From Desulfovibrio sp. (GTDB lineage: Bacteria > Desulfobacterota > Desulfovibrionia > Desulfovibrionales > Desulfovibrionaceae), in the NCBI GenBank assembly GCA_031269345.1, contig JAISZH010000031.1, forward strand, positions 370-64,369: a DNA stretch of 64,000 nucleotides, read 5' to 3'. Every line of letters begins with the position of its first letter. The stretch's first letter is position 1. Under the pieces are notes generated by a model. The model saw only the letters and a list, made by a program, of their open reading frames with translations. It was not told the origin of the DNA and did not search any database. The translations under genes were made by a program, and so were the position numbers. Below, in pieces: positions 24,029-51,718 of this stretch.

Positions 24029-25582
24029 ATGCAAAAAAAATGGGCAAAAATTCTTAAAATTCTTGATAAAAGCATCGCTCCGGCACAACTCAAAGTCTGG
24101 TTGCAGCCGCTGATCCCGGCGCGGGACGAGGGCGGCCTGGTATTGTCGGCTAAAACGGAATTTGTCTGCGCCCATGTCAACACATGGTTTATCTCCGCCC
24201 TGAAAAGCGCGGCAACGGAAGTTTTCGGCTTCGATTGTCCTGTGCGGGTTGAATGCCGGCCCGGTTTGCCTTTGCCGTTCAACGACCCGGAAAAGCCGGA
24301 GAAATCGCTGCCGATCGACGAAACTTCGCCTGTTGCGGCGTCGGACGACGAAGAAAACCGGCAGCCGGGAAGTCCGGAACCCTGTGCGGGCTTTTTAGCG
24401 GCTCCGCCTTCCAGCCCCCTGCCGGCGGTCAGACAAGTTCATCTTCCTTATGATCCGCGGCCGAAACGCGAAGACTCACATAAGGAACGGCAGTGGCGTT
24501 TTTCCTTTGACGATTTCGTGGTCGGCCCCTGCAACCGGCTGGCGCACGCAGCGTCCCTGAGCATGTGCGATACGGGAAAAAACGCGGCCGTTCTTTTTTT
24601 AAGTTCTCCGCCCGGCCTTGGGAAAACGCATCTCATGCAGGCTGTGGGGAAGCTGCTGTGCGAAACGTGCAACCGCCGGCGTCCAAAGGTGGAATACCTG
24701 ACGGCCGAAGAATTCGCCTCGCATTTTATCTATGCTTTGAAAGGCACGGGCAACGACATGCTCGCATTCAAAGCCAGATACCGGGAACTGGACCTGCTAC
24801 TGCTTGACGACGTACACTTCCTGCAAAGCAAGGTTAAGACCCAGAACGAATTGCTCTATATTTTGCAAAGCCTCGCCGCCAACGGCGGAAAAACGGTGTT
24901 CTCCAGCTCGTTTGCCCCTCATGATTTTAAAAACATGGACGAGCAGCTTTTTTCACGCATGTCGGCCGGGCTTTTATCCTTTATCGAACACCCGGATGAG
25001 GATACAAGGAGGGGGATATTGCGACGCAAGGCCTCTTTACATCAGATCCGTCTTCCGAAAGAGGTCGAGGACATTCTGGCCGGTCCCGCTTTTGACGATG
25101 TGCGCAAAATTGAAAGCTGCCTGCACACGCTTATCCACAAAGCGCGGCTCATGAACTCCATGCTGACGCCAGAGCTGGCCATGGAGGCCATAGGGCAATA
25201 TTCCGAATATCGCGCTCCGAGGGACATTGAGAGTATTATCGCCGTCATTTGCAAACTGTATGGGCTTACAAGGGAACAACTGTCGTCCGGCAGCCGCAGG
25301 CAGGAATACGTTTCCGCGCGCAATACGGCTTTTTATCTTGCCAGAAAATATACCGACCTGTCTCTGGAGGCGATCGGCAGACGATTCAACCGGCGGCATT
25401 CAACGGTAATCAAGGGCATAACCTGGCTTGAACGCGAACTCTCCCGCCGAAGTCCGCTAGGACTTCAACTGTCCAACTCCATCAGTATAATTGAAAAAAA
25501 CGCCCGCATCTCCTCTCCCGGCGCCCCTATGCACGCTAATGACGCCGCGCGCCCGTGCTTAAATCCTGTGGTGACAACCTAA
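24029..25582 (+). CDS. dnaA: Chromosomal replication initiator DnaA-family protein
   Basis: AAA+ domain III (FLSSPPGLGKTHLMQA, DLLLLDDVHFL) and domain IV (SRRQEYVSARNTAFYLARKYTDLSLEAIGRRFNRRHSTVIKG). The start is uncertain (ATG at 24029 or TTG at 23993). No dnaN follows. Confidence 0.85.
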   Translation: MQKKWAKILKILDKSIAPAQLKVWLQPLIPARDEGGLVLSAKTEFVCAHVNTWFISALKSAATEVFGFDCPVRVECRPGLPLPFNDPEKPEKSLPIDETSPVAASDDEENRQPGSPEPCAGFLAAPPSSPLPAVRQVHLPYDPRPKREDSHKERQWRFSFDDFVVGPCNRLAHAASLSMCDTGKNAAVLFLSSPPGLGKTHLMQAVGKLLCETCNRRRPKVEYLTAEEFASHFIYALKGTGNDMLAFKARYRELDLLLLDDVHFLQSKVKTQNELLYILQSLAANGGKTVFSSSFAPHDFKNMDEQLFSRMSAGLLSFIEHPDEDTRRGILRRKASLHQIRLPKEVEDILAGPAFDDVRKIESCLHTLIHKARLMNSMLTPELAMEAIGQYSEYRAPRDIESIIAVICKLYGLTREQLSSGSRRQEYVSARNTAFYLARKYTDLSLEAIGRRFNRRHSTVIKGITWLERELSRRSPLGLQLSNSISIIEKNARISSPGAPMHANDAARPCLNPVVTT

Positions 25583-36458: not shown

Positions 36459-36603
36459 GCATTTTATCTTTGAGGTGACGCACCCGGCCCTCTCAGCCTA
36501 CGTCCGCTCCGGCATTTAACAGCGCAAATAAGTTGCGCTTACGCTTTCGCGGCGGGCGTCCGCTCTCGCGGCAGCCAGAGCAGTTTCAAAGTGAAATTGC
36601 TCT
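36459..36603 (+). repeat. Repeat family A, copy A1 (~145 bp)
   Basis: Aligns by eye with 40081-40226 and 43131-43266. Shared blocks are TTTGAG..CCCTCTC..CGC(T/C)TC(C)GGCGTTTAACAGCGCAAA..TTGCGCTTACGCC..GGCGTCCGCTCT.GCGG..CAATTTCAAAGTGAAA. It contains the stop codon of the PSP1-like gene. Confidence 0.88.
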
Positions 36604-37717
36604 AATGCTTGCGCCTGCGTTTTGCTTTTTCCGGTTTACGGTCTCTGGCCAAGCCCTCGACTGGAAAATCAAGTTCGTCATCCTGCAACAAGCCTTCCTC
36701 GCCTTCGAGGGTCGCGTTTTCATTGGCAAAAGCCGCGGCTTCACCGCCCGTTGCGGCCGCGTGGTCATTGTCCTGTGAAATGTTTTCCATCCGGCGCGCA
36801 TCCAACTCTTCCCATTCGTCAAGGCTGAATTCGACTTCCTCGCCATTGTCCTTAAGCGCCGATATGGTGCGGCTGAACATGTTGGTGCGCACAATACGCA
36901 CTATCCCAAGGCGTGTACCGTATCTTTTTCCCGGTTTCGGACAGCTTTTGTTAAAGCTTTCATAACTTTCCTGCTCAAAAGAAAGACAGCAGAGCAAGCG
37001 TCCGCACATACCGGAGAGTTTCACTGGGTTGAGGAACAGATTCTGCTCCTTGGCCATGCGGATAGTCACCGGGGCGAACTTGCGCAGATAGCGGTGGCAG
37101 CAGCAAACCATACCGCAGTTTCCAAGCGCGCCGACCATCTGGGTTTCATGACGCACGCCAATCTGGCGCAATTCAATGCGCGTGCGATAGTTGCGCACCA
37201 AATCCTTCACCAGTTCCCGGAAATCTATACGGGCCGGAGCAGTAAAATAAAAAATAATCTTGCTGCGATCGTGCAGCACTTCCACATCGACCAGCTTCAT
37301 ATCCAGACCGCGGTGTCTGATACAGGTCTTGCAGAAGGCAACGGCTTCCGCCGCCAGTATGGCGTTTTCCGCCCTGCGCGCCACATCTGCGGCAGTTGCC
37401 AGAGAAAGTTCGGCGTTTGGAATGGTTTTCCCCGGAGCGATCCCGGCTGTGTCCCCATAGCTGACGCTTTCAATCTCGCCCAAGGCCTGCCCCTGTTCAA
37501 AAGTCAGCAAAACCCAGCTACCGATGCGCGCTTCCAGCTCTTCGTCGTGAAAGAAAAAAACCTGTCCGCCTCTGCGCAGGCGAATACCCAGAATGCGTTT
37601 GCCCCTGCCCTGCCCCTTGGTCAAAGACAAAGAAAATTCCACCGTTTCTTCCGCAAGAAAAGGCGGCGGCTCAATTTCCACGCGCATTTCCTCATCCGGC
37701 GTCTGACATTTATCCAT
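36602..37717 (-). CDS. PSP1 C-terminal domain protein (RicT/YaaT-like)
   Basis: Conserved PSP1 core (IIFYFTAPARIDFRELVKDLVRNYRTRIELRQIGVRHE..GNCGMVCCCHRYL..GMCGRLLCCLSFE). The start is uncertain (37717 chosen; the ORF is open to 37864). Confidence 0.85.
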   Translation of the reverse strand: MDKCQTPDEEMRVEIEPPPFLAEETVEFSLSLTKGQGRGKRILGIRLRRGGQVFFFHDEELEARIGSWVLLTFEQGQALGEIESVSYGDTAGIAPGKTIPNAELSLATAADVARRAENAILAAEAVAFCKTCIRHRGLDMKLVDVEVLHDRSKIIFYFTAPARIDFRELVKDLVRNYRTRIELRQIGVRHETQMVGALGNCGMVCCCHRYLRKFAPVTIRMAKEQNLFLNPVKLSGMCGRLLCCLSFEQESYESFNKSCPKPGKRYGTRLGIVRIVRTNMFSRTISALKDNGEEVEFSLDEWEELDARRMENISQDNDHAAATGGEAAAFANENATLEGEEGLLQDDELDFPVEGLARDRKPEKAKRRRKH

Positions 37718-37881
37718 AAACGCGCACTTCCACCTTCTCTTTCCCTTTGCCCGCATATCTGCCAATGCGGGAAAAAATCGCCGCAATCCGTCACGGCTTT
37801 GAGGGTATAGATCAGTCTGGTTCCGCTCACCCGGCCCCAAGAAAACTTGCGCCTCATTTGACACGCGCCTCCCGGCGCACA

Positions 37882-37941
37882 GACCGGCACGGCAAAACGC
37901 GGTTTTTGCCGTGTTCGCGCCCCCTTCGACGGCGTGCCGGG
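37882..37941 (+). repeat. Partial copy of repeat family B (3' hairpin module)
   Basis: GACCGGCACGGCAAAACGCGGTTTTTGCCGTGTTCGCGCC.. matches the 3' half of B1 and B2. Confidence 0.75.
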
Positions 37942-37943
37942 AT

Positions 37944-38549
37944 TCAGTCGGGCTTGCCTATGGGATGTACGATTCGAATCTCATAGCCGGCGGAAAGCGT
38001 AAGATCATTTTTAAGAATATCAACCCCGGTGGCCTTGACCACATTGGCGAGACCGGCAGAAGCGCAATAAAGGCCGACATTCTGGTAAACCGAGCCTACA
38101 TGCATGGCGTCGTGCAACCCGCCGGGGGCGGCATAGATCAGGGTCAGGGGGGCGCCGAAGTCTTTGGAGGCATCGCGATCCAGCACTTTCGTCAGGGTAT
38201 GTTTTACCCCGTCATAGCGCCAGACACCCGTACCCATCGCCGCATAGACCTCCACCTGTTGCGAATTCCTGGCCGTGGGCGCGGTGCGCCGCCCGTCCGA
38301 ACGGTTGACGCCGAAAGCCGCCCAGAGCAGATTGCTCAGATCCTTCTGCGCTATGGCCTCATCTTTGAAACCGCGACGGCTTTTGCGTTCGTTCAGGGCC
38401 TTCATCAGCGGCATGCCGCCGGTTTTATCCGGGGGAGGCAGGGCGATGACATCACCTGTGGCCGCTTTTGCGGCATCGGGCAGAGACAGGGCCGGAAACA
38501 AAAATAAAGCCGCCGCCAGAGCCATGACTATAGTCATGTGCATTTTCAT
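37944..38549 (-). CDS. Nitroreductase-fold protein with an N-terminal signal peptide
   Basis: Hydrophobic leader MKMHMTIVMALAAALFLFPALSLPDAAKA, then nitroreductase-family motifs (RKSRRGF, LLWAAFGVNR, RTAPTARN, IYAA). Confidence 0.75.
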   Translation of the reverse strand: MKMHMTIVMALAAALFLFPALSLPDAAKAATGDVIALPPPDKTGGMPLMKALNERKSRRGFKDEAIAQKDLSNLLWAAFGVNRSDGRRTAPTARNSQQVEVYAAMGTGVWRYDGVKHTLTKVLDRDASKDFGAPLTLIYAAPGGLHDAMHVGSVYQNVGLYCASAGLANVVKATGVDILKNDLTLSAGYEIRIVHPIGKPD

Positions 38550-38760
38550 AATCTTTCTCGCTTTTTGTCCATTCGGGGAAATGCCCCGCCCGACAGTTTA
38601 CCAGGAGAGCTGATGGTGTCAACCGGCAGGACATGTGTACGTCCGCCCTCGCTCAACTGCGTCCCTCGATCCGTCACGCTGAAAAGAAAACCTTGTTGTG
38701 TTTGTAAAAACAGGCAGACAATATGAATTTACGAAGACCGTTCCACCAAGAAGGCAGCAT

Positions 38761-38914
38761 GGCCCTTCAGGCCCATGCGTCTTGCGCCTGGGCTGGGTTT
38801 GGACCCCGTCCAGGCTTCCGCCCGCCGCCCGTACGGATACCCCGCCCTTCAGGGCAAGGTCGGGCTATCCGGCCTGAAGGCCGGGGTCTCAAACCGTAAA
38901 GGAAGCTCAGATGA
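38761..38914 (+). repeat. Repeat family E, copy E1 (~155 bp)
   Basis: Roughly 85% identical by eye to 50501-50647, with one 6-nt indel, in the same orientation. Confidence 0.88.
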
Positions 38915-39106
38915 GGTTGAAGAAGTATACACCAATTTCCGCTTCCTTTCAAATACAAAGAAGAGATTGAGATGTGCAAAATCAAACGGTGAAAAGTTAT
39001 ACACCTGTTGAAAAGCCGAGGATGTGAAGACGGGCGCTCGTATCGGCCATATCCTGGTAAGCGCGGCAGGTCAAAATTTGAAGTTGCACATCTGGCCTGA
39101 TCCTAC

Positions 39107-40033
39107 TTACGCCCGGGTCCGGTCAACTATGTGCTGGAAGGTCTCAGCCGCGCCCTGCCCCAGGCTTATGTCTCCCAATGGATAGTCCAGGCCGAGAAAG
39201 GCGTATTTTTGTGTGCCCAGACGGTGATAGGGCAAGGCTTCAAAACCTGCGTTGGCGTGCCTCGCCAGAAAAGCGCCCAAGGCTTTGGCGTTTTCTTCGG
39301 AATCGTTGAAGCCGGGTATGACGGGAGTGCGCACCAGCACAGGCAGATTTGGAAACTTGCAGAGCAGTTTGTTCAGGTTTTCGAGGATGCTTTCGTTGCC
39401 GACCCCGGTGCCTTCCTTGTGCTTCGCGCTGTCCATGTGCTTGACATCGTAAAGGATGGAAGACAGAAGACCTGCCGCTTCGTTCAGGATTTCCCAAGGA
39501 ACGTGACCGCATGTCTCAAGGGCCGTCCGGATTCTTCTTTTCCCGGCCTCGCGCAGCAGCGCCAAGGCAAATGACGGTTGGGCCAGGGGTTCTCCGCCGG
39601 AAAGGGTCATGCCGCCTCCGGACCGACTGTAGAAAACGGAATCCTGCTCCACGGATTCAATGATTTCAGCAACATTTTTCGTCTGGCCGTAAGTGATTAT
39701 CCCCTGCGAAGGGCAGACTGAAGCGCAGACTTGGGTCTCGCAGAACTTGCAGACGTTTCTGTCTATGAAAACACTTTTATCGGGGCCGGGCGAAACGGCA
39801 CTTTTGGGGCAGATGTCGAGGCAGCGCCGACATTTGTCCAAACCGAGGCAGCGGCCCTTGTTATACGCGGGTTGCGGCTTTGCCGATCTGGATTCCGGAT
39901 TGCTGCACCACAGACAGGACAAAGGACAGCCTTTGAGAAAGACTATGGTGCGGATGCCCGGACCGTCATGCACCGAATATTTCTGAACATTGAAAATAAC
40001 GCCGTTTGTCTTTCTGTCTTCAAACGAAGCCAT
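39107..40033 (-). CDS. islB: Glycyl-radical enzyme activating protein (radical SAM), probable IslB/IseH-type
   Basis: CPLSCLWCSNPE radical SAM cluster motif, an auxiliary ferredoxin-like Cys-rich insert (CLGLDKCRRCLDICP, CKFCETQVCASVCP) and a GGEP motif. It lies downstream of the GRE gene. Confidence 0.9.
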   Translation of the reverse strand: MASFEDRKTNGVIFNVQKYSVHDGPGIRTIVFLKGCPLSCLWCSNPESRSAKPQPAYNKGRCLGLDKCRRCLDICPKSAVSPGPDKSVFIDRNVCKFCETQVCASVCPSQGIITYGQTKNVAEIIESVEQDSVFYSRSGGGMTLSGGEPLAQPSFALALLREAGKRRIRTALETCGHVPWEILNEAAGLLSSILYDVKHMDSAKHKEGTGVGNESILENLNKLLCKFPNLPVLVRTPVIPGFNDSEENAKALGAFLARHANAGFEALPYHRLGTQKYAFLGLDYPLGDISLGQGAAETFQHIVDRTRA

Positions 40034-40080
40034 GAATCTTCCTTGGAAAGTAGGGAGGAAAACGGCGCTCTCCCCCTATA

Positions 40081-40226
40081 GCATTTTACTTTTGAGACGA
40101 TGCACCCTGCCCTCTCCAGCTTACGCCCGCTTCGGCGTTTAACAGCGCAAACAAATTGCGCTTACGCCTTCGCGGCGGGCGTCCGCTCTCGCGGCCTCCA
40201 GGGCAATTTCAAAGTGAAATTGTCCT
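40081..40226 (+). repeat. Repeat family A, copy A2
   Basis: See A1. Its terminal hairpin is CCAGGGCAATTTC-aaagt-GAAATTGTCCTGG. Confidence 0.88.
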
Positions 40227-40227
40227 G

Positions 40228-40321
40228 GTGCCATGTATCGCTTAAAACTATGCATCAGCTTTGTTTCAAGCGATAAGATCGCACGGCAATAACCACGGTT
40301 TTTTGCCGTACTCGCGCCGCC
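40228..40321 (+). repeat. Repeat family B, copy B2
   Basis: Matches B1 (20511-20605) and directly abuts A2. Confidence 0.85.
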
Positions 40322-40424
40322 GCGCCCGGGCACAGGAAACCGCATGGACGCAGTTTCCTGCGCAAATTCGAATTACAGCGTGCCGGTCCCCACGGCGGGC
40401 AGATCCCGCCTGCGACTGTTCGGC

Positions 40425-40452
40425 GGCGGGGATTTGCAGGCAAATCCCCGCC
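40425..40452. repeat. 13-bp perfect hairpin GGCGGGGATTTGC-ag-GCAAATCCCCGCC just downstream of the GRE stop
   Basis: Read directly, 24 nt from the GRE stop codon. No U-tract follows on the minus strand. Confidence 0.8.
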
Positions 40453-40475
40453 GGGCGTTTCAAGTGCGAAATGTC

Positions 40476-42974
40476 CTACATGGTTGCATGTCCCGTGCGT
40501 GCGATGAGGTCATTTTGCAGATCCGGGGAAAGATCTACGAAATAGGCGCTGTAGCCGGCTATGCGCACGATCAGGTTGCGGTATCTTTGGGGGTCCTTCT
40601 GCGCTTTGAGCAGGGTTTCCTTGTTGATGACATTGAATTGGATATGCCAGAGTTTCAAATCGCAGTATGTGCGGATGAATGAGACCAGTTTCTCCGTGCC
40701 CGCATCGCCCTCAAGGCATTTTGGCGTGAATTTGATGTTCAGCATGCGGGCCGCCCGATCACGGTAGCCGTAATTCTTCGTCTGGTAGTTGGACAGCAGA
40801 ATTGCGGTAGGGCCGTTGATGTCCGCGCCGTGCGAAGCTGAAGAGCCGTCAGAAAGCGGAAACCAGGACGTGCGCCCGTTAGGGGTCGCGGAAACAACCT
40901 TGCCGAAAGGTACGTGGGAGGTGAAGGGCACATAGCGCAAGTCGTTGTGGATGCCCAGTTCCGCGCTGTATTTTTTGGAGAACTCAAGAGATACGTGGTC
41001 CAGCTCATGGGCCACGGCATCGGAATAGGGGTCGTTGTTCCCGTAGCAGGGGGCGGAGCGCAGGATCTGCTGCACGTCCTCGTAGCCCTCGAAATTGTGC
41101 TCCAGCGCGTCCATGACCTGATCCATGGTCAATTTTTTGCTTTCAAAAACGATTTTTTTGAGGGCTGCAAGGGAATCAGTCACCGTCCCGTAGCCCATGA
41201 ACTCAAAGTAGCCCAGGTTGATGCCCTCGGGGATATGCTCCTGATGCAGGTCTATGCAGTGTTTCATGCACAGGTCGTGCATGGCCGAACCCATGGGCTG
41301 GGCGAAATGCCGGGCGCGTGTCTTGTTGACTATGTACTGCTGGGTGAAGGCGGCGCGCAGGAAAAGCAAATGCTGTTGCAGATAGGCGTTCCAGAGTTCC
41401 TCCCAGGTTTTGAATTGCCTGGCGTCGCCCGTGCGCAGGCCGAGCTGCGTATCGCCGTATTTTTTCATCTTGCCGTCGTAAAGCGCCATTTCCAGGGCCG
41501 CGGCGAAATTGATGTAGGCTCCGCCGGAGGTGTAGGTATCACGGTTGGGCATGCGCGCCTCCGTGCAGCCGGAAACGGCGTAGTCCAGAGCCTCTTCAAA
41601 AGTCGCGCCTTTGGAAACATAGAGCGGCACTACTTCCTCGTCATTGCAGAGTTTTGGAAAACCTGAGCCGTATTTGATGGTTTCGGCGACATCCCAGAGG
41701 AAGCGGTCAGGGGAACGGGAATGGATGCGTGCCGCCAGATCCGGGTAATGCAGCGGAAACTCGCGTTTGGATTTCAGGAAGAGGAGGGTCAGGTCATTGG
41801 TGGCGTCGCGCCCGTCCGGGGTTTGCCCGCCGACGGTTACGGCCTCCCAGTGGGCGTACCCTTCGTTAAAAGCGCCGCCGGCCGGGGAAATATACATGTC
41901 TATGAATTCTGCCATTCCCACCCACATGCATTCCAGCAGCTCCAGTGCCTTTTCCTCGGTGATGCGGCCTTCCTCCAGGTCTTTGGCATAGAAGGGGTAA
42001 AAATATTGGTCCATGCGGCCGTTGGAGATGGTGGTTCCGGTTTTCTGCTCCATGCGGGAGAACATCTGTGTGAACCACTGCGATTGCACGGCCTCATAGA
42101 AGGTGCGCGCCGGGTTGCCGGGCACATATTCGGCGTTTTCCGCCATAAGCAGCAGCTCGGCTTTGCGCGCCGGGTCTTTTTCCTTTGCGGCCGCCTTGCG
42201 GGCCGCCTGCGCGTGACGGCGGGCCCAGAGCACAACGGCCTCGCATACAAGGACCACCGCCTCCAGGAAGGGACGTTTGTCCACCTGATCGACGGGACTT
42301 GCGGGATCAAGAGCCGCGAGCTTTTCTTCCGCTTCTTTCCTGATGCCGTTAAAGCCGCGTTTCAATATCTTTTCGTAGTCGTGCACCCATTGGATGGAAG
42401 AGCGGAAACTGGACGTTTCGTTGACGATGAAACGGGAGATAAGCCCTTCCGGGTCATCGTACGTCAGCTTGTGCACTTCCGGCGGCAGGGCCGCATTGAG
42501 CGCTTCATGGTAGGTCTTGCCCTTCCAGAAGGGGGCGATGCGCCTGATAACGGTTTTCGCGTCTTCCGTGGTGATGGTTGCGGGCGAAGTAGTGCGTGTC
42601 GGCATATCTTCTACGGCCCTGTCCAGAAAGTCCCCATCCAGTTCCGGATAGAGGATGCCGTAGCGTCCGATGCAACCCGCGCGGCCGAGCAGCAACTGGT
42701 CGTCCTGCACGTAAACCGTGATGTTTTTCGCTATGTGCATCATGGCCTTGGCCCAGCGCAGCACCAGGGGCTGGCCCACTGTCTTTTCCATGGACTGGGT
42801 GAAATAAAGAGCCCGCTCAACGTCAATACGGGGTTTTTGTCCCTCAAAGCGTTCCACAAGCCTGAAAACCCGGCTGTGTTCGACGCGGAAGCGGTCTTCA
42901 ACTCCCGCCATCTGGTCCGTAAGACGCTTTTCCTGTGGGGAAAGGCATTCGCATTCGGTAAATTGCAATCTCAT
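40476..42974 (-). CDS. islA: Glycyl radical enzyme of the PFL2/1,2-eliminase clade, probable isethionate sulfite-lyase (IslA/IseG-like)
   Basis: C-terminal glycyl radical motif RIAGYSAYF, a thiyl loop SGCTEA (Cys-x-Glu), and PFL2-type blocks ([48 protein letters not shown]). The ATG at 42974 lies 6 nt behind GGAGG, giving 832 aa. The Arg191/Gln195/Cys470/Glu472/Arg680/Gly807 pattern is discussed in the findings. Confidence 0.85.
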
Positions 42975-43130
42975 CTTCATCCTCCGATCATTTTCCCCAG
43001 CCGCGCCAAACGCGGACGGAAGGTTACAGATATTTTTATGCAATCCGCTGAGCAACTCCCATGCCAGTTTCATTTATCCCACATATTCCGCGCGGTTTTC
43101 CGCCATGAAACGGCTTTCGGGGCATGTCAA

Positions 43131-43266
43131 CTTTGAGATTACAGCCTGGCTTTCTCCGTTCTGCGCCCGCTCCGGCGTTCAACAGCACAAATAAATTGCG
43201 CTTGCGCCTTCCCGGCTGGCGTCCGCTCTAGCGGCCGCCGGAGCAATTTCAAAGTGAAAGTGCCAG
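43131..43266 (+). repeat. Repeat family A, copy A3 (more diverged)
   Basis: See A1. It lies between the TSUP gene stop and the GRE start. Confidence 0.8.
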
Positions 43267-43346
43267 GAGAAACAATTTTTGCATCGACAAACCGCGTATG
43301 TCTTTCGACTTTTCCCGTGTTGCATTTTTGCATCGCTTGACGGCCT

Positions 43347-44093
43347 CTACTCCAGGACGCCCCGCGCGGCAATGAGCAGGCCGATGACGAGGCAGAACCA
43401 GGTCACATATTTTTTCAGGCTGTCCAAAGGAAGGTTGTGCGCAACGCGCACCCCCAGCGCTACCCCGACCAGTTCGCAGACCGTCACCCACCAGACCAGG
43501 GGAAAGACGATGAAGCCGTTGCTGTAGTTGCTCAGCGAGCCCGCGGCCGAGACAAAGGATTGCAAGACCTGGGCGGTGCCTATGCAGGGCAGGACGGCGT
43601 ACCCGAAAAGCAGCATGACCGGGGTCGAGACAATGCCGCCGCCAGCCCCGGTCATGCCGCAGAGAAAGCCGGTGAACAGGCCGATACACATGAGCAGGAG
43701 AAAATTTCCCCGCGCGTCCAATCTGTCCGCAAAGCGCGCGCCTTTTGCCGGACGCAGGGAATAGAGGCTTGAGAGGATGACTATGCCTGCGAGCAACAGG
43801 GAAAGGGCCGGTGAGGAGAGGCGTGCGTTCACGGACGCCCCGGCATAGCTGCTTGCCAGACTTCCGACCAGTACCGGGACGGTCGTTTTCCAGTGGATGC
43901 TGCCATAGCGCTGGAAGATATAAGTGGCGATTATGCCGGTGAAAAAAAAGCTGAACAGGGCGGTGGCCATGGCCTGGTGCGTGGAAAGACCGCCAAAGAA
44001 CATGAGTGCGGGAATAAGCAGCACACCGCCGACTCCGCCGGCCCCGATGATGAAGCCTATGAACAGGGAGGACAGGGCCAGCGGCATGTACAT
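43347..44093 (-). CDS. TSUP-family membrane protein (TauE/SafE-type, putative sulfite/sulfonate anion exporter)
   Basis: 248-aa protein with ~8 TM helices, an internal two-fold repeat and Gly-rich motifs (GAGGVGGVLLIPAL, GMTGAGGGIVSTPVML). Confidence 0.8.
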   Translation of the reverse strand: MYMPLALSSLFIGFIIGAGGVGGVLLIPALMFFGGLSTHQAMATALFSFFFTGIIATYIFQRYGSIHWKTTVPVLVGSLASSYAGASVNARLSSPALSLLLAGIVILSSLYSLRPAKGARFADRLDARGNFLLLMCIGLFTGFLCGMTGAGGGIVSTPVMLLFGYAVLPCIGTAQVLQSFVSAAGSLSNYSNGFIVFPLVWWVTVCELVGVALGVRVAHNLPLDSLKKYVTWFCLVIGLLIAARGVLE

Positions 44094-44159
44094 GAGTTTT
44101 CCCGGCGTTTTTTCGGAGCGTTGTTTGCTGACGTTTCCCCGGGCGTTTGTCTTGTCCGC

Positions 44160-45071
44160 TCATTGGAACGAACGGACATAAGGCACAAAGGGCAGAGGCG
44201 TTCCGATTACGGAAGAGTGCGGCTTGGCCGCGCGTGTTGCGGATTTGTCCAATATGCGGGCGGCGTTTTCGTACATGACCTTGCGCCGCACCGTGTCCGT
44301 CAGGTTCATCTTGTTGTAGATATCAATGGCTTCGGCCTGTTCCACAAAGGGATGCGCGCTGGCGAAGACGACCTTGTCGCTGATGGCGGTATTGAGCGCC
44401 TGCACGTAAAGCTCGCCCATGGGAGCAAGCTCGTACTCGGAGAGGTCCATGTAGACATTGGCGTTGCGCATGCAGGCAAAAATGGCTTCGTTCACGAACG
44501 GATAGCCGCCGTGGCTCATGATGATGGTCAGTTCCGGAAAATCCCTGGCCACTATGTCCACATGGCGCGGATCAACGTAGTCAATGACGGCGCGCGGCAC
44601 CTGAGGCGGCGGGGCCATGGTGATGAACACCGGCACGCCCAGTTCCGCGCATTTGGTATACACCGGATAGTAGCGCGCCTCATGCGGCGGGATATGGGCA
44701 AGGTAGGGGTCGGTGGCGATGCCGCGCATGCCGAATTTTTCCACAACGCGGTTGATCTCGTATACGGCCTTCATACCCTTGTGCGGATCTATGCCCCAGA
44801 AGCCCACGAAAATATCCGGGCGGGCGCGTGCGAATTCCAGCACACTGTCGTTGTTTGACGGGAAACAATAGGTGGTTTCGCAGTCGCGTCCGGTGATCAC
44901 CGCAAGTTCCACACCGCGTTTTTTCAAGCCTTCCACCACCTCAGGCAGAGATTGGGGGATTCGCCTGTCGAAATTGATGGCTTCGCAGGTGGCTTTGAAC
45001 ATGGAACTATTCTTGATGCCGTTAATTATTTCCGGGGTGTGGGGCCGGAAACGGAAATCAATGATTTTCAT
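44160..45071 (-). CDS. Amidohydrolase-2 (PF04909-like TIM barrel) fold protein lacking the N-terminal HxH metal motif
   Basis: MKIIDFRFRP.. occupies the position where this family normally has IDxHxH. Later blocks are typical (VFITMAPP, IIMSHGGYP, YENAARIL). It overlaps the upstream ATPase gene by 14 nt. Confidence 0.7.
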   Translation of the reverse strand: MKIIDFRFRPHTPEIINGIKNSSMFKATCEAINFDRRIPQSLPEVVEGLKKRGVELAVITGRDCETTYCFPSNNDSVLEFARARPDIFVGFWGIDPHKGMKAVYEINRVVEKFGMRGIATDPYLAHIPPHEARYYPVYTKCAELGVPVFITMAPPPQVPRAVIDYVDPRHVDIVARDFPELTIIMSHGGYPFVNEAIFACMRNANVYMDLSEYELAPMGELYVQALNTAISDKVVFASAHPFVEQAEAIDIYNKMNLTDTVRRKVMYENAARILDKSATRAAKPHSSVIGTPLPFVPYVRSFQ

Positions 45072-46002
45072 ATGCGCTCCCGGTGCGGGTCACTCTCTGT
45101 CCCTCCCCATCATCTTTGCCGGCCTTGGGTCTTGCCTGTTCCTCGCCCATTTTGGAGTATGCCTCCAGAAAGTCAGCCGCGTTGACAGCTCCGGCGGCGA
45201 AAGATTTCATGGCTTCCTCGTGCAGGAGTTCCAATGCCTCGCGTTTGATGTCCAGGTATTCCGGCGAGCCCATAACGGAAAATTCGCGCGGCCTGGGCAG
45301 GTCTACGTCCATGATTTTTTTGACGCGGCACGGATGATTGGTCAGGATTACCAAGCGATCGGCCAGGAATATTCCTTCTTCCAGTTCCGAGGTAACAAAC
45401 AGGTTTGTACCGCGATGCTCTTCAAAGAGGCGCACATAGTATTCCTGCATAAGCGAACGGGTCATGGCGTCCAGTCCTCTGAAGGGCTCGTCCATAAGCA
45501 TGACCTTGGGATGATTGATCATAGCCCGTACCAATTCCGCTCTGCGCTGCATGCCTCCAGAGAGCTGGGAGGGATATTTGCCCGCGAAGTCTTCAAGTCC
45601 CACCATTTTCAGCAACTGCATGGTGGTATCGGCCAGTTCCCTTCCGGACAATTCCTTGCGCACCCTTGGACCGTAACTGACGTTTTCGAAAGTGGTCATC
45701 CAGGGGAAAAGGGCTGTTTCCTGAAACACCACCAGACGGTCCGGCCCCGGACCGGTGACGGGTTCGCCGTCCAAGGAAACGCGTCCGGAAGTCGGTTTTT
45801 CATAGCCCGCCAGCACGTTGATCAGCGTACTTTTGCCGCAGCCGGACGGACCCACCAGCACGGTAAGCCTGCCCTTTTCCAGCGTAAAGGAGCAATCTTT
45901 GAGGACTTCCTTGGTCAGAACGTCTGCGCCGTAAGTTTTACAGACATTTTCCATGCTCATTTCGCCGGCGCGCTGTCCGGGGGTGAGTGTCGTCTTCATC
46001 AT
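45058..46002 (-). CDS. ABC transporter ATP-binding protein, NitT/TauT (SsuB/TauB-like) family, copy 2
   Basis: Walker A GPSGCGKST, signature LSGGMQRR, Walker B VMLMDEPF. The start could be 46002 or 45960. Confidence 0.9.
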   Translation of the reverse strand: MMKTTLTPGQRAGEMSMENVCKTYGADVLTKEVLKDCSFTLEKGRLTVLVGPSGCGKSTLINVLAGYEKPTSGRVSLDGEPVTGPGPDRLVVFQETALFPWMTTFENVSYGPRVRKELSGRELADTTMQLLKMVGLEDFAGKYPSQLSGGMQRRAELVRAMINHPKVMLMDEPFRGLDAMTRSLMQEYYVRLFEEHRGTNLFVTSELEEGIFLADRLVILTNHPCRVKKIMDVDLPRPREFSVMGSPEYLDIKREALELLHEEAMKSFAAGAVNAADFLEAYSKMGEEQARPKAGKDDGEGQRVTRTGSAYENH

Positions 46003-46049
46003 GCGTTTATTCCGTAAAAGTACATTTTACCGATGTATGCTTCTGACGA

Positions 46050-46850
46050 TCAGCGGGTCTTCAGCCAGGGGGTGAAACGGCTGCCTACCAAACGGATCAG
46101 TGCCGATGAAAAATATCCGGCGATCCCGATGCTCATCATGCCAACTACTATAAGGGGAAATTCGCCTGCCACGTAACCGCGCCAAGTCAGATAGCCAAGG
46201 CCCGTCTTGCTGGCGACCATTTCGGCCGCCACCACCACGGCCCAGGTGATGCCCATGCCCACGGTCATGCCCACCACAACGCTGGGCAGGCTGGCGGGAA
46301 GCAGAACTCGCCAAAAAATGTCACTCCGGCTGGAACCGAGCGAGTGTGCCGCCCTGATGTAACGCACGTCAATACTGGTGATGCCTTCCACAATGTTCAG
46401 CACCACGGTAAAGAAAGCGCCCAGAAAGGTCACGAAGATCATGCTCATTTCCGCCGAAGGCCAGAAAATGACGGATACAGGAACCCAGGCCAGCGGCGGC
46501 ACCGGCCGCATGATCTCGAAAATCGGGAAAAGAACTTCCCTTGCCCGGTCGTTGGCGCCCAGAAAAAGTCCCAGCGGCACTCCAATGATCTGGGCGATGA
46601 TGAAGCCGGTGAAAATCCGGATCATGCTGTCCTTCCAAGAGAGCCAATAATAGGTATTATGGAGTTGGACGGCCAGGGTGGACACGACTTCCGAGGGAGC
46701 GGGCACATTGCCGATGATCGGCGCCTTCAGATACGTACACAATTCCCAGAGCAAGGTGAAGACCGTCAAAGAAAATATGCCGCGCCAGAAGGTCCGGGAA
46801 CGCGTCCTATTTTTTATTCCGGCAAGCGCCCGGGATATCCTGTCGTTCAC
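46050..46850 (-). CDS. ABC transporter permease, NitT/TauT (SsuC/TauC-like) family, copy 2
   Basis: BPD-type permease with the EAA-like loop IRAAHSLGSSRSDIFWRVLLP. The GTG at 46850 sits behind a GGAGAT RBS. The longer ORF would overlap the upstream ATPase gene. Confidence 0.85.
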   Translation of the reverse strand: MNDRISRALAGIKNRTRSRTFWRGIFSLTVFTLLWELCTYLKAPIIGNVPAPSEVVSTLAVQLHNTYYWLSWKDSMIRIFTGFIIAQIIGVPLGLFLGANDRAREVLFPIFEIMRPVPPLAWVPVSVIFWPSAEMSMIFVTFLGAFFTVVLNIVEGITSIDVRYIRAAHSLGSSRSDIFWRVLLPASLPSVVVGMTVGMGITWAVVVAAEMVASKTGLGYLTWRGYVAGEFPLIVVGMMSIGIAGYFSSALIRLVGSRFTPWLKTR

Positions 46851-46860
46851 TTTATATCTC

Positions 46861-47715
46861 CTACATTTCCCGCTCGCCGGCTTTGAAGGCTTTGACCGCT
46901 TCCTCGTGTACCGCCGCAATGCATTCGGTTCTAAGCCTCTGGTAGGCCGTAGACGCCAGGACGCGAAAATCACGCGGGCGGGGGATGTCAACGGAGAGCA
47001 CCTTTTTTATGGTGGCGGGTCTGGTGGTCATTATATAGACCTTGCTTCCGAGGAAAATTGCCTCGTCGAGATCGTGCGTGATGAAGAACACCGTTGTTTT
47101 GTTCCTGTCGTAAACGTCAAGCAAAAACTGATGCACCACGGTCTTTGTAAGCGCGTCCATGGCCCTGAAGGGCTCGTCGAGCAAAAGCACGCGCGGGTCG
47201 TTCATCATGGCCCTGGCGATTTCCACCCGGCGGCGCATGCCCGAGGAAATCTCGCTCGGATAGTTGTGGGCTATGCCTTTAAGACCCATCTGGCCCATCA
47301 TGTGCAAGGCCTTTTCTTCCGCATCTTTTTTGGATGCGGCCCCCTGCATCACCGGGCCGAAGGTTATGTTCTCAAGCACCGTGAACCAGGGAAAGAGCGC
47401 TCCGTTTTGAAAGACCACGATACGATCCGAGCCGGGCTTGGGCACCTGGGAACTGTTGCAGAGCAGTTCACCATCAAGATGAATTTCGCCCGCGCTGATG
47501 CCGTGGAATCCGGCAATGGCGTTAAGAAGCGTGGTTTTGCCGCAGCCTGAGGGGCCGACTATAACACAGAATTCGCCCGCCTCAATTTCCATGGAACAGT
47601 CGTCCACGGCAAGCACCCGCGCCCCGTCAGGGTCGTATATCTTGCTGACGGCGCGTATGCTTATGGCTCCACGGGGCGTTTTCCCCCCGCCGTTTTCAAC
47701 AGACACAGCGCTCAT
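46861..47715 (-). CDS. ABC transporter ATP-binding protein, NitT/TauT family, copy 1
   Basis: Walker A GPSGCGKTT, signature ISSGMRRR, Walker B VLLLDEPF. Confidence 0.9.
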   Translation of the reverse strand: MSAVSVENGGGKTPRGAISIRAVSKIYDPDGARVLAVDDCSMEIEAGEFCVIVGPSGCGKTTLLNAIAGFHGISAGEIHLDGELLCNSSQVPKPGSDRIVVFQNGALFPWFTVLENITFGPVMQGAASKKDAEEKALHMMGQMGLKGIAHNYPSEISSGMRRRVEIARAMMNDPRVLLLDEPFRAMDALTKTVVHQFLLDVYDRNKTTVFFITHDLDEAIFLGSKVYIMTTRPATIKKVLSVDIPRPRDFRVLASTAYQRLRTECIAAVHEEAVKAFKAGEREM

Positions 47716-48614
47716 TATGCGACCTCCCTAACCTTCCACTGCATGAGTTTGTCCCCGACCAGCCGGATAATGAGGCTGCTCAGAGAACCTATCACGCCCA
47801 GGGTGATCATGGCGATGATGATGACCGGATATTGCACCAGTGTGTAAGAGTTCCAGATAAGGTAGCCGAGGCCGAATTCCCCGGCCAGCATTTCGCCGGC
47901 CACGAGGGAAAACCATGCGTAGCCCATGCTTATTTGCAGACCTGTGAAGATGAAGGGAAGCGAGCCGGGGACGATGACCTTATAAAAAATTTGTTTCTCC
48001 GAGGCGCCAAGGGACGCAGCCGCCCTAAAATACGCCTCGTCTATGGATTCGACGCCCAGAAGCGTGTTTAAGACAGTAGCGAAGAAGGAGCCGAGGAAGG
48101 TCAGGAAAATGATGGAGGCCTCGCGCCCCGGCCACATGAGGATGGACAGCGGCACCCACGCGAGCATGGGGATGGGGCGCAGAACTTCAAGAAGGGGGAA
48201 AGTGTAATCCTTGAAGGTCGCTTTCCAGCCCATGAACAGCCCGATCGGAACTCCCAGAGCCGTAGCCAGCATAAAGGCCTGGAAAACACGCCAGGTACTT
48301 ATGCCGATGTGCTGGTAATATTCCATGGTGTAGAAGGAAATGCCGTAGAGCGGGTCGGCAGAGAGCCATTCGGTGAAAGTGGCTTTTGGACCGGGGAGTT
48401 TGTTGAAGAGCGGCAGGTTGAAAACCTCGGTTGTGACGTACCAGACCGCTACGAAACCGCATAGTCCGAGCAGGTTCAGGTAGGGCGAGGGGCTTCCAAG
48501 CCAGTGCTTCATCCTGGTCCAGGTCTGGGCGACTGAACTTAACTGTGTGCCGGGATTGTCCGGAGTCTCGAAGGGCACGCTGTTCTCCTTGCCGGATGAG
48601 TAGACGTCAGGCAT
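47715..48614 (-). CDS. ABC transporter permease, NitT/TauT family, copy 1
   Basis: BPD-type permease with the EAA-like loop FRAAASLGASEKQIFYKVIVP. Its stop overlaps the next gene's start by 1 nt. Confidence 0.88.
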   Translation of the reverse strand: MPDVYSSGKENSVPFETPDNPGTQLSSVAQTWTRMKHWLGSPSPYLNLLGLCGFVAVWYVTTEVFNLPLFNKLPGPKATFTEWLSADPLYGISFYTMEYYQHIGISTWRVFQAFMLATALGVPIGLFMGWKATFKDYTFPLLEVLRPIPMLAWVPLSILMWPGREASIIFLTFLGSFFATVLNTLLGVESIDEAYFRAAASLGASEKQIFYKVIVPGSLPFIFTGLQISMGYAWFSLVAGEMLAGEFGLGYLIWNSYTLVQYPVIIIAMITLGVIGSLSSLIIRLVGDKLMQWKVREVA

Positions 48615-48665
48615 GGGCGAGCCAGGATCATCCGCGCGGACGATCCTGGCTTTTATCTGGAACCG

Positions 48666-49784
48666 TTAATCGCTGAAGGGGCACTGCGCCGGGAGCATTC
48701 CCTTGATATAGCCGAGCGTGGCCTTTTCGTCCACCGGCGTGTAGCCGGCTTCCTTGAATATCGCGCGGGCCAGGCTGTCGTCCACCACCCAGTCTTTCAG
48801 GGCGGGAACGGCGATGACTTTTTCCTGGTGCAGGAAGGGAGCGACGGCTTTGATGTTGTCCAGTTCGCGTTTGTTGAAATAATATGATTTCCACTCACGC
48901 ACGGGATCAGCGCTGGTGGACGGCACCTTGCCGTAAATGGAGTACCAGAGCACGCGCTTGGAAATGCCGGAAGCGTGCTTTGCCACCATCTCCACCACCT
49001 GCTTCTGGTTGGCCGGATCGAGCAGGAAGCGCTGGGCTTCCAGTTCCGAACGGAGGTAGGCTTTGGCGGCATCCGGGTTGTCTTTGATGAAGTCGTTGCG
49101 CATGACCAGGATGCCGAGGTCCGGGTTGTCGCAGGCGCTTCCATCCGCCACGATGCGTACGCTGCCGTCGCCAACATCTGTTGCTATGCGCGAGACTGTG
49201 GGCTCCCAGGCGGAAGCCGCGTCAAGTTTGCCGCTGCGGAAGTTGGTGGCAATGACCTCAATGGATTGATTCAGATATTCTTTGGGTTTTACCTGATAGC
49301 GCTCGAAAAAACGGCGCAGGTACTGGTCGGAGGCGCTGCCTTTGGGTGCGGCTATGACCTTGTTGTTAAGCCATTTCGCGACATCCTCGTTGCTTTTGAA
49401 TTCGGGCGCGTCTTTACGCACCAGGACCAAAGAACAACGCGTGCCTTCGGACATGCCGAGCGAGGCCACCATTTTGATCTCCGCCTGTTGATCCTTGGAG
49501 CAGAGTATCGTCGCGGGCATCACGCTCATATAACCAGCGACCGCTTTGCCGGCGAGCATGTTGTTGGCCACGATAGTGCCTTGTAAGGCGGGCGCGAATT
49601 CAAATTCCACATCCTTGGGCGCGTATTTCTTCCAGAGACCGAGTTCAGCGTTGACGATCACCTGATAGGAAATCGTGTCGTAGGGCTGGTAGCCGATGGT
49701 GAAGGTGCGGGCGGCGTTGGCTCCTGTCGCCGCGCTCATGACGAAAATGAAAAGCGCGCAAAAAATGCTGCAAAAACCTTTCAT
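48666..49784 (-). CDS. Periplasmic substrate-binding protein, NMT1/SsuA/TauA-like
   Basis: The ATG at 49784 lies 8 nt behind GGAGG, followed by the signal peptide MKGFCSIFCALFIFVMSAATGANA and a TauA/SsuA-type fold (FTIGYQPYD.., AAPKGSASD.., AASAWEP). Confidence 0.85.
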   Translation of the reverse strand: MKGFCSIFCALFIFVMSAATGANAARTFTIGYQPYDTISYQVIVNAELGLWKKYAPKDVEFEFAPALQGTIVANNMLAGKAVAGYMSVMPATILCSKDQQAEIKMVASLGMSEGTRCSLVLVRKDAPEFKSNEDVAKWLNNKVIAAPKGSASDQYLRRFFERYQVKPKEYLNQSIEVIATNFRSGKLDAASAWEPTVSRIATDVGDGSVRIVADGSACDNPDLGILVMRNDFIKDNPDAAKAYLRSELEAQRFLLDPANQKQVVEMVAKHASGISKRVLWYSIYGKVPSTSADPVREWKSYYFNKRELDNIKAVAPFLHQEKVIAVPALKDWVVDDSLARAIFKEAGYTPVDEKATLGYIKGMLPAQCPFSD

Positions 49785-49936
49785 ACGATAACCTCCATAT
49801 GTTGTGGTGCCGGACATGGCAGAAAACGCTTTCGCGACGTCTCTATTTCCGCATTCGTCGTTCCGGTTGGGAAGGCCGGGTTGAGAACACTCCGCCTTTC
49901 TTATTACAAAATTTTGCTCGAAGTAAAATAATTTTT

Positions 49937-50100
49937 CCGGATAACCATATAAAAGTTGAAGATACGGACTTCCGCACGGAAATCTGAACGGCAGCCGCCA
50001 GACCGCTGCCGGCGCGAAGCGGCGCAAGTCGGCCGAAAATCGCGTTTTCGGCCGACGACCTCCGCAAGGAAAAGTTTACTTTTCAATACGGATATCAGTG
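49937..50100 (+). repeat. Repeat family D, copy D2
   Basis: See D1. Same orientation as D1. Confidence 0.85.
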
Positions 50101-50500
50101 ATTGTTGTGTTCGCCTCCGGGAAGATGAAAGGCCGGGTTTTGCCCGACGCCGTGCGCATCCAGATCAGAAGGGCCACTTAAACCCGACGAGCAAGTTGCA
50201 TACCAGCAGGAAAAAAACATGACCATGCCAAGCAGGAAACCGTGATGAGCGGGGCTTTGCAGGCACAGGCAGGACCGATGGACAGCTTCTTTCGCCGGAA
50301 GAGCCGGGGCATTGTACGGTGCATATTTGCATCATCAGGGCTACAAATTCTTAATGAAATTTTTTTACCCCGGGAATAACAAGCTTTTTAATGGTGTATT
50401 TTTGCATCAAATACCCACAGCGCGAAGGTTGCTGCCCCCCTCCCCCCAATGACTGCGGTCGCAATCGTTCCAAGGCTGGCACAGGGGCAAGTGAAAGGCA

Positions 50501-50673
50501 GGGGCTTCAGGCCCCTGCGTCCTGCGCTTGGGCGGAATTTGGATCCCGCCCAAGCTTCCGCCCGTACGGAGACCTCGCCCTTCAGGGTGGGGTCGGGCTA
50601 TCCGGCCTGAAGGCCGGGGTCCCAAACCGTAAAGGAAGCTCAGATGAAAAAGAAGGAAGCTCAGATGAAAAAG
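50501..50673 (+). repeat. Repeat family E, copy E2, ending in a 21-bp tandem duplication (AAGGAAGCTCAGATGAAAAAG x2 at 50632-50673)
   Basis: See E1. The tandem duplication was read base by base. Confidence 0.88.
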
Positions 50674-50687
50674 AACGAACGGCCTTT

Positions 50688-51167
50688 TCACCGCCGCTGT
50701 TCAACAGGCACACCAGTGGAGCACTTCCTGCACCTGCCCTGTATTTCAATACAGTTGTCGCGCAGGGACATACCCAGTTCGTCGAATCTGGCCCGCATGG
50801 ATTCGTATAGAACGGGGTCTTCCAGTTCTTCTACCCGTCGGCATTCCGAACAGACGAACATGAGCAGCGCATGTTCGTCATGACTGCCGGTACACGGCAC
50901 GAAGGCATTCAAAGAATTGATGCGGTGCGCCATTCCGTATCGCAGCAAAAAATCCAGTGTCCGGTAAATGGTCGCCGGGGTGAGCCGTTCTCCTTTGTCT
51001 CGCATCCGTTCAATAAGATCATAGGCCTTGACGGGACCGTCCGCCGACAAAAGGAGTTCAAGAATCCCCCGACGCAACCTGGTCAGTCGCAGGCCGTTCC
51101 TCGCGCAGATTTCTTCGGCTTCACGCAGGCTACGCACGGCGCTTTCGGAACATTCCTTCACTACCAT
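50688..51167 (-). CDS. zur: Fur-family metalloregulator, probable Zur
   Basis: Winged-helix N-domain (RLTRLRRGILELL..PVKAYDL..ATIYRTLDFL) and two CxxC pairs (CSECRRVEE.., GRCRKC). It overlaps the last gene of the zinc uptake operon by 7 nt. Confidence 0.75.
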   Translation of the reverse strand: MVVKECSESAVRSLREAEEICARNGLRLTRLRRGILELLLSADGPVKAYDLIERMRDKGERLTPATIYRTLDFLLRYGMAHRINSLNAFVPCTGSHDEHALLMFVCSECRRVEELEDPVLYESMRARFDELGMSLRDNCIEIQGRCRKCSTGVPVEQRR

Positions 51168-51718
51168 TGATATGGCTCCGCCTTATCTAGCGCCATGCTG
51201 TACCCGGAGGCTCCCATGCTCCCGGAGTCATGTCGTTCAACGGAAATAGTCCCATAAACCCATGCCGCGTCCATAGACCGCAACCCCTTGAGAGGCTTTT
51301 GCGTCTTTACATGGATGATCTGATTCGCGGGCGGCGGCGGCAAATGGATACAGGCGCCGAAGTACGGGACAAGCAGAAATTCTTTCAGTTCCGCATCGTT
51401 CTCCCAATCCAGCGGGGCGATGAAGCCGGATATTTTTATGCGCTGCCCGCTTATCTTTTCATTCGCGGGAGCTTTCGCCCACTCCTCCATAAAGGCTTCA
51501 TACGCCTTTTCCACACGCGGGTTGTAATCGTCCTCGGGAAGGCTGTCCAAATCAAGCCCCTCAAAGGCTTTTTCCGGATTCCACGATTCCGGCACGAGTT
51601 CATCCCATTGGACTTCTTTGTACGAGTCAGCCGTGGCGCTTTCCCCGACCAGGGACGTATTATGCAAAAAAACGCAGCACATGGCAAAGCACAGCGCCGG
51701 CTTGACATATGCTTTCAT
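51161..51718 (-). CDS. zrgD: DUF3299-type periplasmic protein (ZrgD-like)
   Basis: Signal peptide and the hallmark FLLVPYFGACIHLPPPPANQIIHV motif. The ATG at 51718 sits behind GGAGG. An alternative coupled start is at 51769. Confidence 0.75.
   Translation of the reverse strand: MKAYVKPALCFAMCCVFLHNTSLVGESATADSYKEVQWDELVPESWNPEKAFEGLDLDSLPEDDYNPRVEKAYEAFMEEWAKAPANEKISGQRIKISGFIAPLDWENDAELKEFLLVPYFGACIHLPPPPANQIIHVKTQKPLKGLRSMDAAWVYGTISVERHDSGSMGASGYSMALDKAEPYQW

Follow-up and report, generated by a model that had tools for sequence, protein, structure and literature searches.

A Desulfovibrio ortholog of isethionate sulfite-lyase in a repeat-bracketed gene module

We have analyzed a stretch of 64,000 nucleotides (nt) of Desulfovibrio sp. 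DNA (assembly GCA_031269345.1, contig JAISZH010000031.1, positions 370 to 64,369 of the forward strand), hereafter the window, and in particular islA, a gene on its minus strand at window positions 40476-42974. The gene very probably encodes an isethionate sulfite-lyase (IslA, which is the same enzyme as IseG), a glycyl radical 1,2-eliminase. It forms part of a series of minus-strand genes in the order binding protein, permease, ATPase, permease, ATPase, Amidohydro_2 protein, TauE/SafE permease, islA and islB, where islB encodes an activating enzyme. The transporter-amidohydrolase-tauE-islAB module extends over 11.6 kb, and is bracketed by direct repeats of ~150 nt.

The islA gene and its relatives of known structure

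Translation of the minus strand between 40476 and 42974 gives 832 codons and a stop, confirming the length of 832 amino acids counted from the ATG at 42974 in an earlier reading made from the sequence alone (the sequence-only reading). Scripted placement of motifs puts FRSSIQW at residues 190-196 (with Arg191 and Gln195), SGCTEA at 468-473 (Cys470 and Glu472), NDLRYVPF at 677-684 (Arg680) and RIAGYSAYF at 804-812 (Gly807), so that all six key residues lie exactly where that reading had located them. The list of open reading frames (ORFs) carries the same frame a further 33 codons, up to an ATG at 43073 (865 amino acids). We have rejected this longer form. A GGAGG sequence stands 6 nt 5′ to the ATG at 42974 as a good ribosome-binding site, a sigma-54-type promoter match (43051-43066, see below) falls within the extension, and the alignments of homologs begin at residues 1-8; we therefore take the ATG at 42974 as the start codon. 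An exact-sequence look-up of the product, using either start, returned no record.

The product was compared with the sequences of the Protein Data Bank (PDB) using phmmer. Among solved structures its best matches are the two crystallized isethionate sulfite-lyases, i.e., IslA of Bilophila wadsworthia (PDB 7KQ3, 1583 bits, E = 0) and IseG of Desulfovibrio (Nitratidesulfovibrio) vulgaris Hildenborough (PDB 5YMR, 1487 bits). With such a score and E value for 7KQ3, the likeness to IslA is not due to chance. These are followed by HpsG of B. wadsworthia (PDB 6LON, 1198 bits), a sulfolyase acting on (S)-2,3-dihydroxypropanesulfonate (DHPS), and at a considerable distance by the choline TMA-lyase CutC (~559 bits) and by the glycerol and diol dehydratases and the trans-4-hydroxy-L-proline dehydratase HypD (430-460 bits). 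A MAFFT alignment of the product with the sequences deposited for 7KQ3, 5YMR and 6LON gave identities of 80.0% to IslA, 75.9% to IseG and 60.7% to HpsG. By the same alignment the identity between IslA and IseG, both of them characterized isethionate lyases, is only 73.1%. The match to IslA (PDB 7KQ3/7KQ4; Peck et al., 2019, PMC6386719; Dawson et al., 2021, PMC8473560) extends over 824 residues and contains one indel of a single residue. In the HMMER alignment the offset between the numbering of IslA and that of our sequence is +3 at the N terminus and becomes +2 past this gap, near residue 101 of the query, with no later indel up to residue 831.

The residues of B. wadsworthia IslA that participate in catalysis and substrate binding are Arg189, Gln193, Cys468, Glu470, Arg678 and Gly805 (Dawson et al., 2021; PMC8473560). 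They pair one-to-one with Arg191, Gln195, Cys470, Glu472, Arg680 and Gly807 of the islA product, all six at an offset of +2. The IslA residue numbers that the sequence-only reading had used, and the constant offset that it drew from them, are thus correct. It had treated the numbering as common to IslA and IseG, and in this respect it was mistaken for the latter; the D. vulgaris enzyme is numbered Arg187, Gln191, Cys466, Glu468 and Arg676 (PMC6453916; PMC13450708), differing by two from IslA and by four from our sequence. The agreement extends to other residues with published roles. Trp376, Val682, Phe684 and Ile194 align with Trp374, Val680, Phe682 and Ile192 of IslA, which have been examined by mutagenesis, the tryptophan and the valine lying near the Cys and Gly loops (PMC8473560), and Thr312 of IslA is also retained. 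Similarly, Phe680, Ile190 and Thr310 of IseG, which make van der Waals contact with isethionate (Xing et al., 2019; PMC6453916), are all the same in the query. In the isethionate-bound structures the sulfonate is held by an Arg/Gln/Arg triad, with which Arg191, Gln195 and Arg680 align residue for residue. The triad corresponds to Arg189/Gln193/Arg678 in IslA, Arg187/Gln191/Arg676 in IseG and Arg183/Gln187/Arg672 in HpsG, and is invariant in the 157 sequences discussed below. Since the identity is 80% and no indel occurs after residue 101, the sequence alignment should by itself fix the correspondence with the residues of the ligand-bound crystal structure.

The protein contains the domains of the superfamily of glycyl radical enzymes (GREs), with PF02901 (PFL-like) matched at 585.6 bits and PF01228 (Gly_radical) at 100 bits, together with the glycyl radical motif R-[IV]-x-G-[YF], here Arg804-Ile-Ala-Gly807-Tyr-Ser. 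The C-x-E motif of the GRE 1,2-eliminases is present as Cys470-Thr-Glu472, aligned with Cys468-Ile-Glu470 of IslA, and the triad of the sulfonate C-S lyases has its first Arg and its Gln on β1 and its second Arg on β8. CutC, HypD and the glycerol and propanediol dehydratases have the PFL-like barrel and glycyl radical domain, the CxE motif and the overall logic of radical elimination in common with the islA product, but they score ~430-560 bits against ~1500-1580 bits for the isethionate lyases, and they lack the triad (PMC8473560, PMC6453916); the position of its Gln is occupied by Asp216 in CutC and by His160 in HypD (PMC8473560). Moreover the product falls well short of the curated NCBIfam equivalog cut-offs for CutC (TIGR04394, 528 bits against 1050) and HypD (NF043068, 525 bits against 1100). 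The proposal of the sequence-only reading, that the enzyme has a sulfonate-binding pocket and should carry out C-S lyase chemistry rather than that of choline, hydroxyproline or diols, is supported by these scores, by the aligned triad and by the failure to reach the CutC and HypD cut-offs.

Orthology to the characterized enzymes is shown, with conservation of all the catalytic and substrate-contacting residues and the presence of an activase; the conversion of isethionate into sulfite and acetaldehyde is the activity we infer for the product. Based on studies of characterized orthologs, the reaction would begin with the generation of a radical on Gly807 by the radical S-adenosylmethionine (SAM) activase IslB (39107-40033), from where it would move to Cys470. 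The Cys470 thiyl radical is expected to abstract a hydrogen atom from isethionate, at the carbon that bears the hydroxyl group, while Arg191, Gln195 and Arg680 would hold the sulfonate. Glu472 would then deprotonate the hydroxyl group, and the resulting ketyl radical would expel sulfite. Re-abstraction of hydrogen from Cys470 should be followed by release of acetaldehyde, and the sulfite could serve as electron acceptor in dissimilatory sulfite reduction to H2S.

In Bilophila and Desulfovibrio, taurine-derived isethionate is converted into sulfite, and subsequently into H2S, by means of IslA/IseG, an oxygen-sensitive enzyme. The islA gene is an ordinary ortholog of this biochemically and structurally characterized and already known enzyme, in a bacterial family in which it is known to be widespread. 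Relatives with 75-96% identity, adjoining homologous activases, are found in Desulfovibrio, Bilophila, Mailhella and Desulfomicrobium. Conceptually, nothing is gained from a further Desulfovibrio ortholog.

Residues that distinguish isethionate and DHPS enzymes

Does the arrangement of the active-site residues define the substrate? The sequence-only reading had taken the spacing of the six residues (4, 279, 210 and 127 residues) as a mark of the isethionate lyases. The HpsG residues, which include Arg183, Gln187, Cys462 and Arg672 (PMC13450708), are Arg183/Gln187/Cys462/Glu464/Arg672/Gly799, and their spacings are identical. Therefore the spacing marks the group of sulfonate C-S lyases, to the exclusion of CutC, HypD and the diol dehydratases, and says nothing on the choice between isethionate and DHPS. 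HpsG also has the same fold, sulfonate triad, CxE and Gly loops and Trp as the query. It belongs to a separate clade, however, and has Ala185, Leu186, Ala306 and Ile676 where the query has Ser193, Ile194, Thr314 and Phe684.

We have examined how far these differences hold among relatives. From contigs representing one genome per species, 80 loci were fetched with the islA product and 80 with HpsG. The 153 full-length GREs extracted from these were aligned with the query and the three crystallized enzymes, making 157 sequences. The alignment divides into 108 sequences of IslA type and 49 of HpsG type, a split that was recovered in 30 out of 30 bootstraps of a neighbor-joining tree, with the query on the side of IslA and IseG. 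At position 314 of the query there is Thr in all 108 IslA-type sequences and Ala or Gly in all 49 of HpsG type, and at position 684 Phe (108/108) is replaced by Ile (49/49). Position 193 is Ser or Cys in the IslA-type and Ala or Gly in the HpsG-type sequences, while position 194 is Ile (100 sequences) or Leu (8) in the former and Leu in all 49 of the latter. The query has Thr314, Phe684, Ser193 and Ile194, matching the pocket residues Thr312, Phe682, Ser191 and Ile192 of IslA, and has neither the Ala/Leu/Ala/Ile signature of HpsG nor a place in its clade. The alignment, together with the contacts described for the crystal structures (PMC6453916, PMC8473560), leads us to infer that these four positions may set the specificity, the roles of the HpsG pocket being drawn from the alignment and a review of 2026. 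Isethionate is favored as the substrate because of the higher identity to IslA and IseG, the consistent division of the clades and the presence of Thr314 and Phe684. It is the pair Thr314/Phe684 against Ala/Ile that separates the isethionate lyases from the DHPS sulfolyases; the residue spacing does not.

The Cys loop of the query, C-T-E-A, differs from the C-I-E-I of Bilophila IslA and is identical to that of D. vulgaris IseG. The sequence-only reading considered Thr after the Cys and Ala after the Glu to be less common than GCVEP in this clade. The converse is found. C-T-E-A is the commonest form of the loop among the IslA-type sequences (56 of 108), C-I-E-I occurs in seven, and Val or Pro is present at these two positions in none of the 108.

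Neighboring genes and module boundaries

The islB gene (39107-40033, minus strand) encodes a radical-SAM activating enzyme of 308 amino acids, matching TIGR02494 with 334 bits (cut-off 174). It has the sequence Cys36-x3-Cys40-x2-Cys43 and eight further Cys residues for two auxiliary clusters, and provides islA with its cognate activase. It lies downstream of islA, the order found in nearly all related loci, and a dedicated activase likewise adjoins islA in Bilophila. The two genes are separated by an unusually long spacer of 442 nt (40034-40475, minus strand). This has a hairpin at its start, a perfect one of 12 bp without a T-run, read from the sequence at 40425-40452 (minus strand), 24 nt past the islA stop codon, and also contains one copy of a 110-nt repeat described below. 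The spacer may set the ratio of islA to islB expression.

A match to a sigma-54-type -24/-12 promoter, TGGCATGGGAGTTGCT, is located at 43051-43066 (minus strand), 77 nt 5′ to the islA ATG, and a second, TGGTATGCAACTTGCT, at 50190-50205 (minus strand), upstream of the transporter genes. The 64 kb contain no other match to TGGYAYR-N4-TTGCW, where 0.19 would be expected, and both are on the minus strand. Among 72 related loci, 10 carry this pattern in the 350 nt upstream of islA, the background being 0.005 per 350 nt. The module is probably transcribed from sigma-54 promoters. In 57 of the 80 related loci, among them that of the closest relative, which is 96% identical (locus L001), islB is followed by a PAS/sigma-54 activator.

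Immediately upstream of islA is a gene for a TauE/SafE-family anion permease of 248 amino acids (43347-44093, minus strand; PF01925, 124.6 bits), which probably moves a sulfur anion. An overlapping ORF of 304 codons (43249-44163, minus strand) is rich in Arg and has no match in family models or the PDB; we have rejected it as a gene in favor of the clear TauE/SafE frame.

Beyond the Amidohydro_2 gene are five genes of an ATP-binding cassette (ABC) importer of the NitT/TauT type, all on the minus strand. They comprise ATPase 1 (45058-46002), permease 1 (46050-46991), ATPase 2 (46861-47715) and permease 2 (47715-48614), all assigned by matches to family models, and a periplasmic substrate-binding protein resembling NMT1, SsuA and TauA (48666-49784). 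The listed TTG start of permease 1 overlaps the preceding gene, and translation probably begins further downstream. For the binding protein we have rejected the listed TTG at 50027 in favor of the ATG at 49784, which has a ribosome-binding site and is followed by a signal peptide. Its best solved relative is the taurine-binding protein TauA, a weak match (E = 6e-7). The adjacent importer probably supplies the substrate of the islA product. Published IslA/IseG neighborhoods have importers of the tripartite ATP-independent periplasmic (TRAP; IseKLM) or major facilitator superfamily (MFS; IseU) types (PMC6453916), in contrast to the ABC importer present here, and the Bilophila islA neighborhood is a microcompartment operon. 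Compared with the latter, our locus lacks nearby genes for a microcompartment shell, AdhE or Pta as well as an adjacent PAS/sigma-54 regulator, and has the ABC importer and tauE directly upstream. An ABC importer stands next to islA in six of the related loci as well (L001, L032, L062, L066, L067 and L069).

The gene between the transporter and tauE encodes an Amidohydro_2 (PF04909) protein of 303 amino acids (44160-45071, minus strand), and is closely linked to islA across the Desulfovibrionaceae. We have analyzed the linkage in the IslA-seeded loci (L001-L080) and in others seeded with the amidohydrolase (L160-L238). Among the 28 IslA-seeded loci with full flanks, 24 have a homolog with at least 60% identity no more than 10 kb from islA; of the 35 loci seeded with the amidohydrolase that measure 15 kb or more, 33 contain an IslA-type GRE. 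Thus the two genes occur together in ~86-94% of loci with sufficient flank. Within 3 kb, the gene accompanies 23 of 62 IslA-type loci compared with 2 of 20 of HpsG type. The B. wadsworthia ortholog, HMPREF0179_00649, has no assigned role and bears the entry 'hypothetical, predicted amidohydrolase function', and 844 relatives have public names of a generic kind ('amidohydrolase family protein', 'TIM-barrel metal-dependent hydrolase'). An exact-sequence look-up of the protein returned no record.

The protein belongs to a BB4693-like branch. Its family conserves Asp5-Phe-Arg7-Phe-Arg9-Pro, in which R-x-R takes the place of the H-x-H metal ligands of the superfamily, and has Ala239-His240 where Asp is usual on strand 8. 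A predicted model (mean predicted local distance difference test score 79.7) is best matched by the uncharacterized BB4693 (PDB 3IRS; TM score 0.75-0.81), followed by the γ-resorcylate, LigW and ACMSD decarboxylases and the LigJ hydratase. An N-acetyltaurine amidohydrolase is neither supported nor excluded by the generic names and the decarboxylase and hydratase neighbors in fold. We have rejected the Bilophila metallo bile-salt hydrolase as an identity for this protein; that enzyme is secreted, with a signal peptide, and is encoded beside a type II secretion system (PMC13081902). It is possible, and we propose it tentatively, that the protein carries out an unassigned step of glycyl-radical isethionate respiration, and that the transporter-amidohydrolase-TauE-islAB block is a horizontally moving module. 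The role may be in handling the acetaldehyde/sulfite pair, or in processing a precursor.

The repeats that bracket the module lie at 38765-38914 (left copy) and 50505-50647 (right copy), the latter being 85-93% identical to the former. Similarity to L001 at the DNA level, at 89-92%, is confined to window positions 39112-50427, between the two copies. The L001 sequence reaches ~9 kb past islB and ~2.6 kb past the end of the transporter, and nothing in these extensions matches the window. For the flanking genes the nearest relatives are 62-74% identical, in metagenome-assembled genomes (MAGs) of Desulfovibrio from termite gut that have a different gene order. Horizontal acquisition of the module is suggested by these data, not proved. 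We found no unoccupied insertion site, the relatives with the flanking nitroreductase having other gene orders, and no plasmid match for the module, and its guanine plus cytosine (GC) content does not deviate from that of the surroundings. The window has no further copies of the ~150-nt repeat, and a 25-mer core of it has no exact match in the collection of genome contigs.

The 110-nt repeat is a GC-rich, strongly structured intergenic element present in three copies of the same orientation (36494-36599, 40113-40222 and 43153-43262) that are 85-90% identical. The consensus folds with -45 kcal/mol, and a copy with 76% identity occurs in another Desulfovibrio MAG (L021/L234). Rfam gave no match at E ≤ 1 over 37000-51500, a span that takes in two of the three copies. 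Given the presence of this three-copy repeat, the pair that flanks the module could also be of a dispersed intergenic kind.

Alternative readings and the rest of the window

Some observations weigh against the assignment of islA to the isethionate sulfite-lyases. The sole curated NCBIfam model that the product passes, NF048011 (1527 bits, cut-off 1000), carries the name of the DHPS enzyme ('SfplDhtHpsGDes, (2S)-3-sulfopropanediol dehydratase'). Neither a TRAP (IseKLM) nor an MFS (IseU) importer is present in the neighborhood, which is also devoid of microcompartment genes and of an acetaldehyde dehydrogenase, and a homolog of the PAS/sigma-54 activator is absent from the whole 64-kb window. 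The model name can be dealt with directly. With the same library the three crystallized enzymes all score alike (IslA 1504, IseG 1559 and HpsG 1510 bits), so that the result is neutral; NF048011 spans the whole C-S lyase group, and we have rejected its product name as uninformative on the substrate. If the name were followed, isethionate lyases such as islA would be labelled as DHPS enzymes. That the gene encodes a DHPS sulfolyase of the HpsG type, yielding hydroxyacetone and sulfite, as both this name and the common residue spacing would allow, is exceedingly improbable in view of the lower identity to HpsG, the position of the query on the IslA side of the tree, and a pocket that differs at all four positions from the residues of the 49 HpsG-type sequences.

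The importer bears on the origin of the substrate. An enzyme of the IslA clade might act not on imported isethionate but on a sulfonate formed intracellularly from whatever compound, such as taurine or an N-acyl or other conjugate, the ABC system takes up; the GRE chemistry would still be the cleavage of isethionate. The layout of one binding protein, two permeases and two ATPases is the one annotated for the N-acetyltaurine importer NaaABB′CC′ (PMC4334477), the binding protein has its weak resemblance to TauA, and a gene of amidohydrolase fold lies between the transporter genes and islA. Yet the likeness to Naa is one of architecture, the Amidohydro_2 gene is found with islA in most genomes whatever the type of transporter, and its structural neighbors are decarboxylases and hydratases rather than amide hydrolases. 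Nor is there a taurine:pyruvate aminotransferase (tpa) or sulfoacetaldehyde reductase (sarD) gene in the 64-kb window. We consider such an intracellular origin unlikely. The missing activator raises a different question, of whether an intact islA might be a recently acquired and poorly expressed passenger, its sigma-54 promoters silent without the cognate activator that is usually encoded 3′ to islB. The abrupt end of DNA similarity to L001 at module edges bounded by direct repeats is in keeping with this, as is the frequency of the activator in the related loci. However, every gene of the module is of full length and has its motifs intact, the GC content is like that of the surroundings, and the activator may be encoded elsewhere in the genome, beyond the window. 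Silence of the module is quite improbable, and an isethionate sulfite-lyase remains the preferred identity of the islA product.

The remaining genes of the window are of a housekeeping nature, and include cheA, relA/spoT, nadABC, metG, yidC, rho and asd. An ORF of 502 amino acids (10002-11510, minus strand) has a C-terminal domain resembling that of VgrG3 of type VI secretion systems (PF21277), with no other annotated secretion genes adjoining. A DnaA-family protein of 529 amino acids is encoded downstream of ruvB (23993-25582, plus strand).

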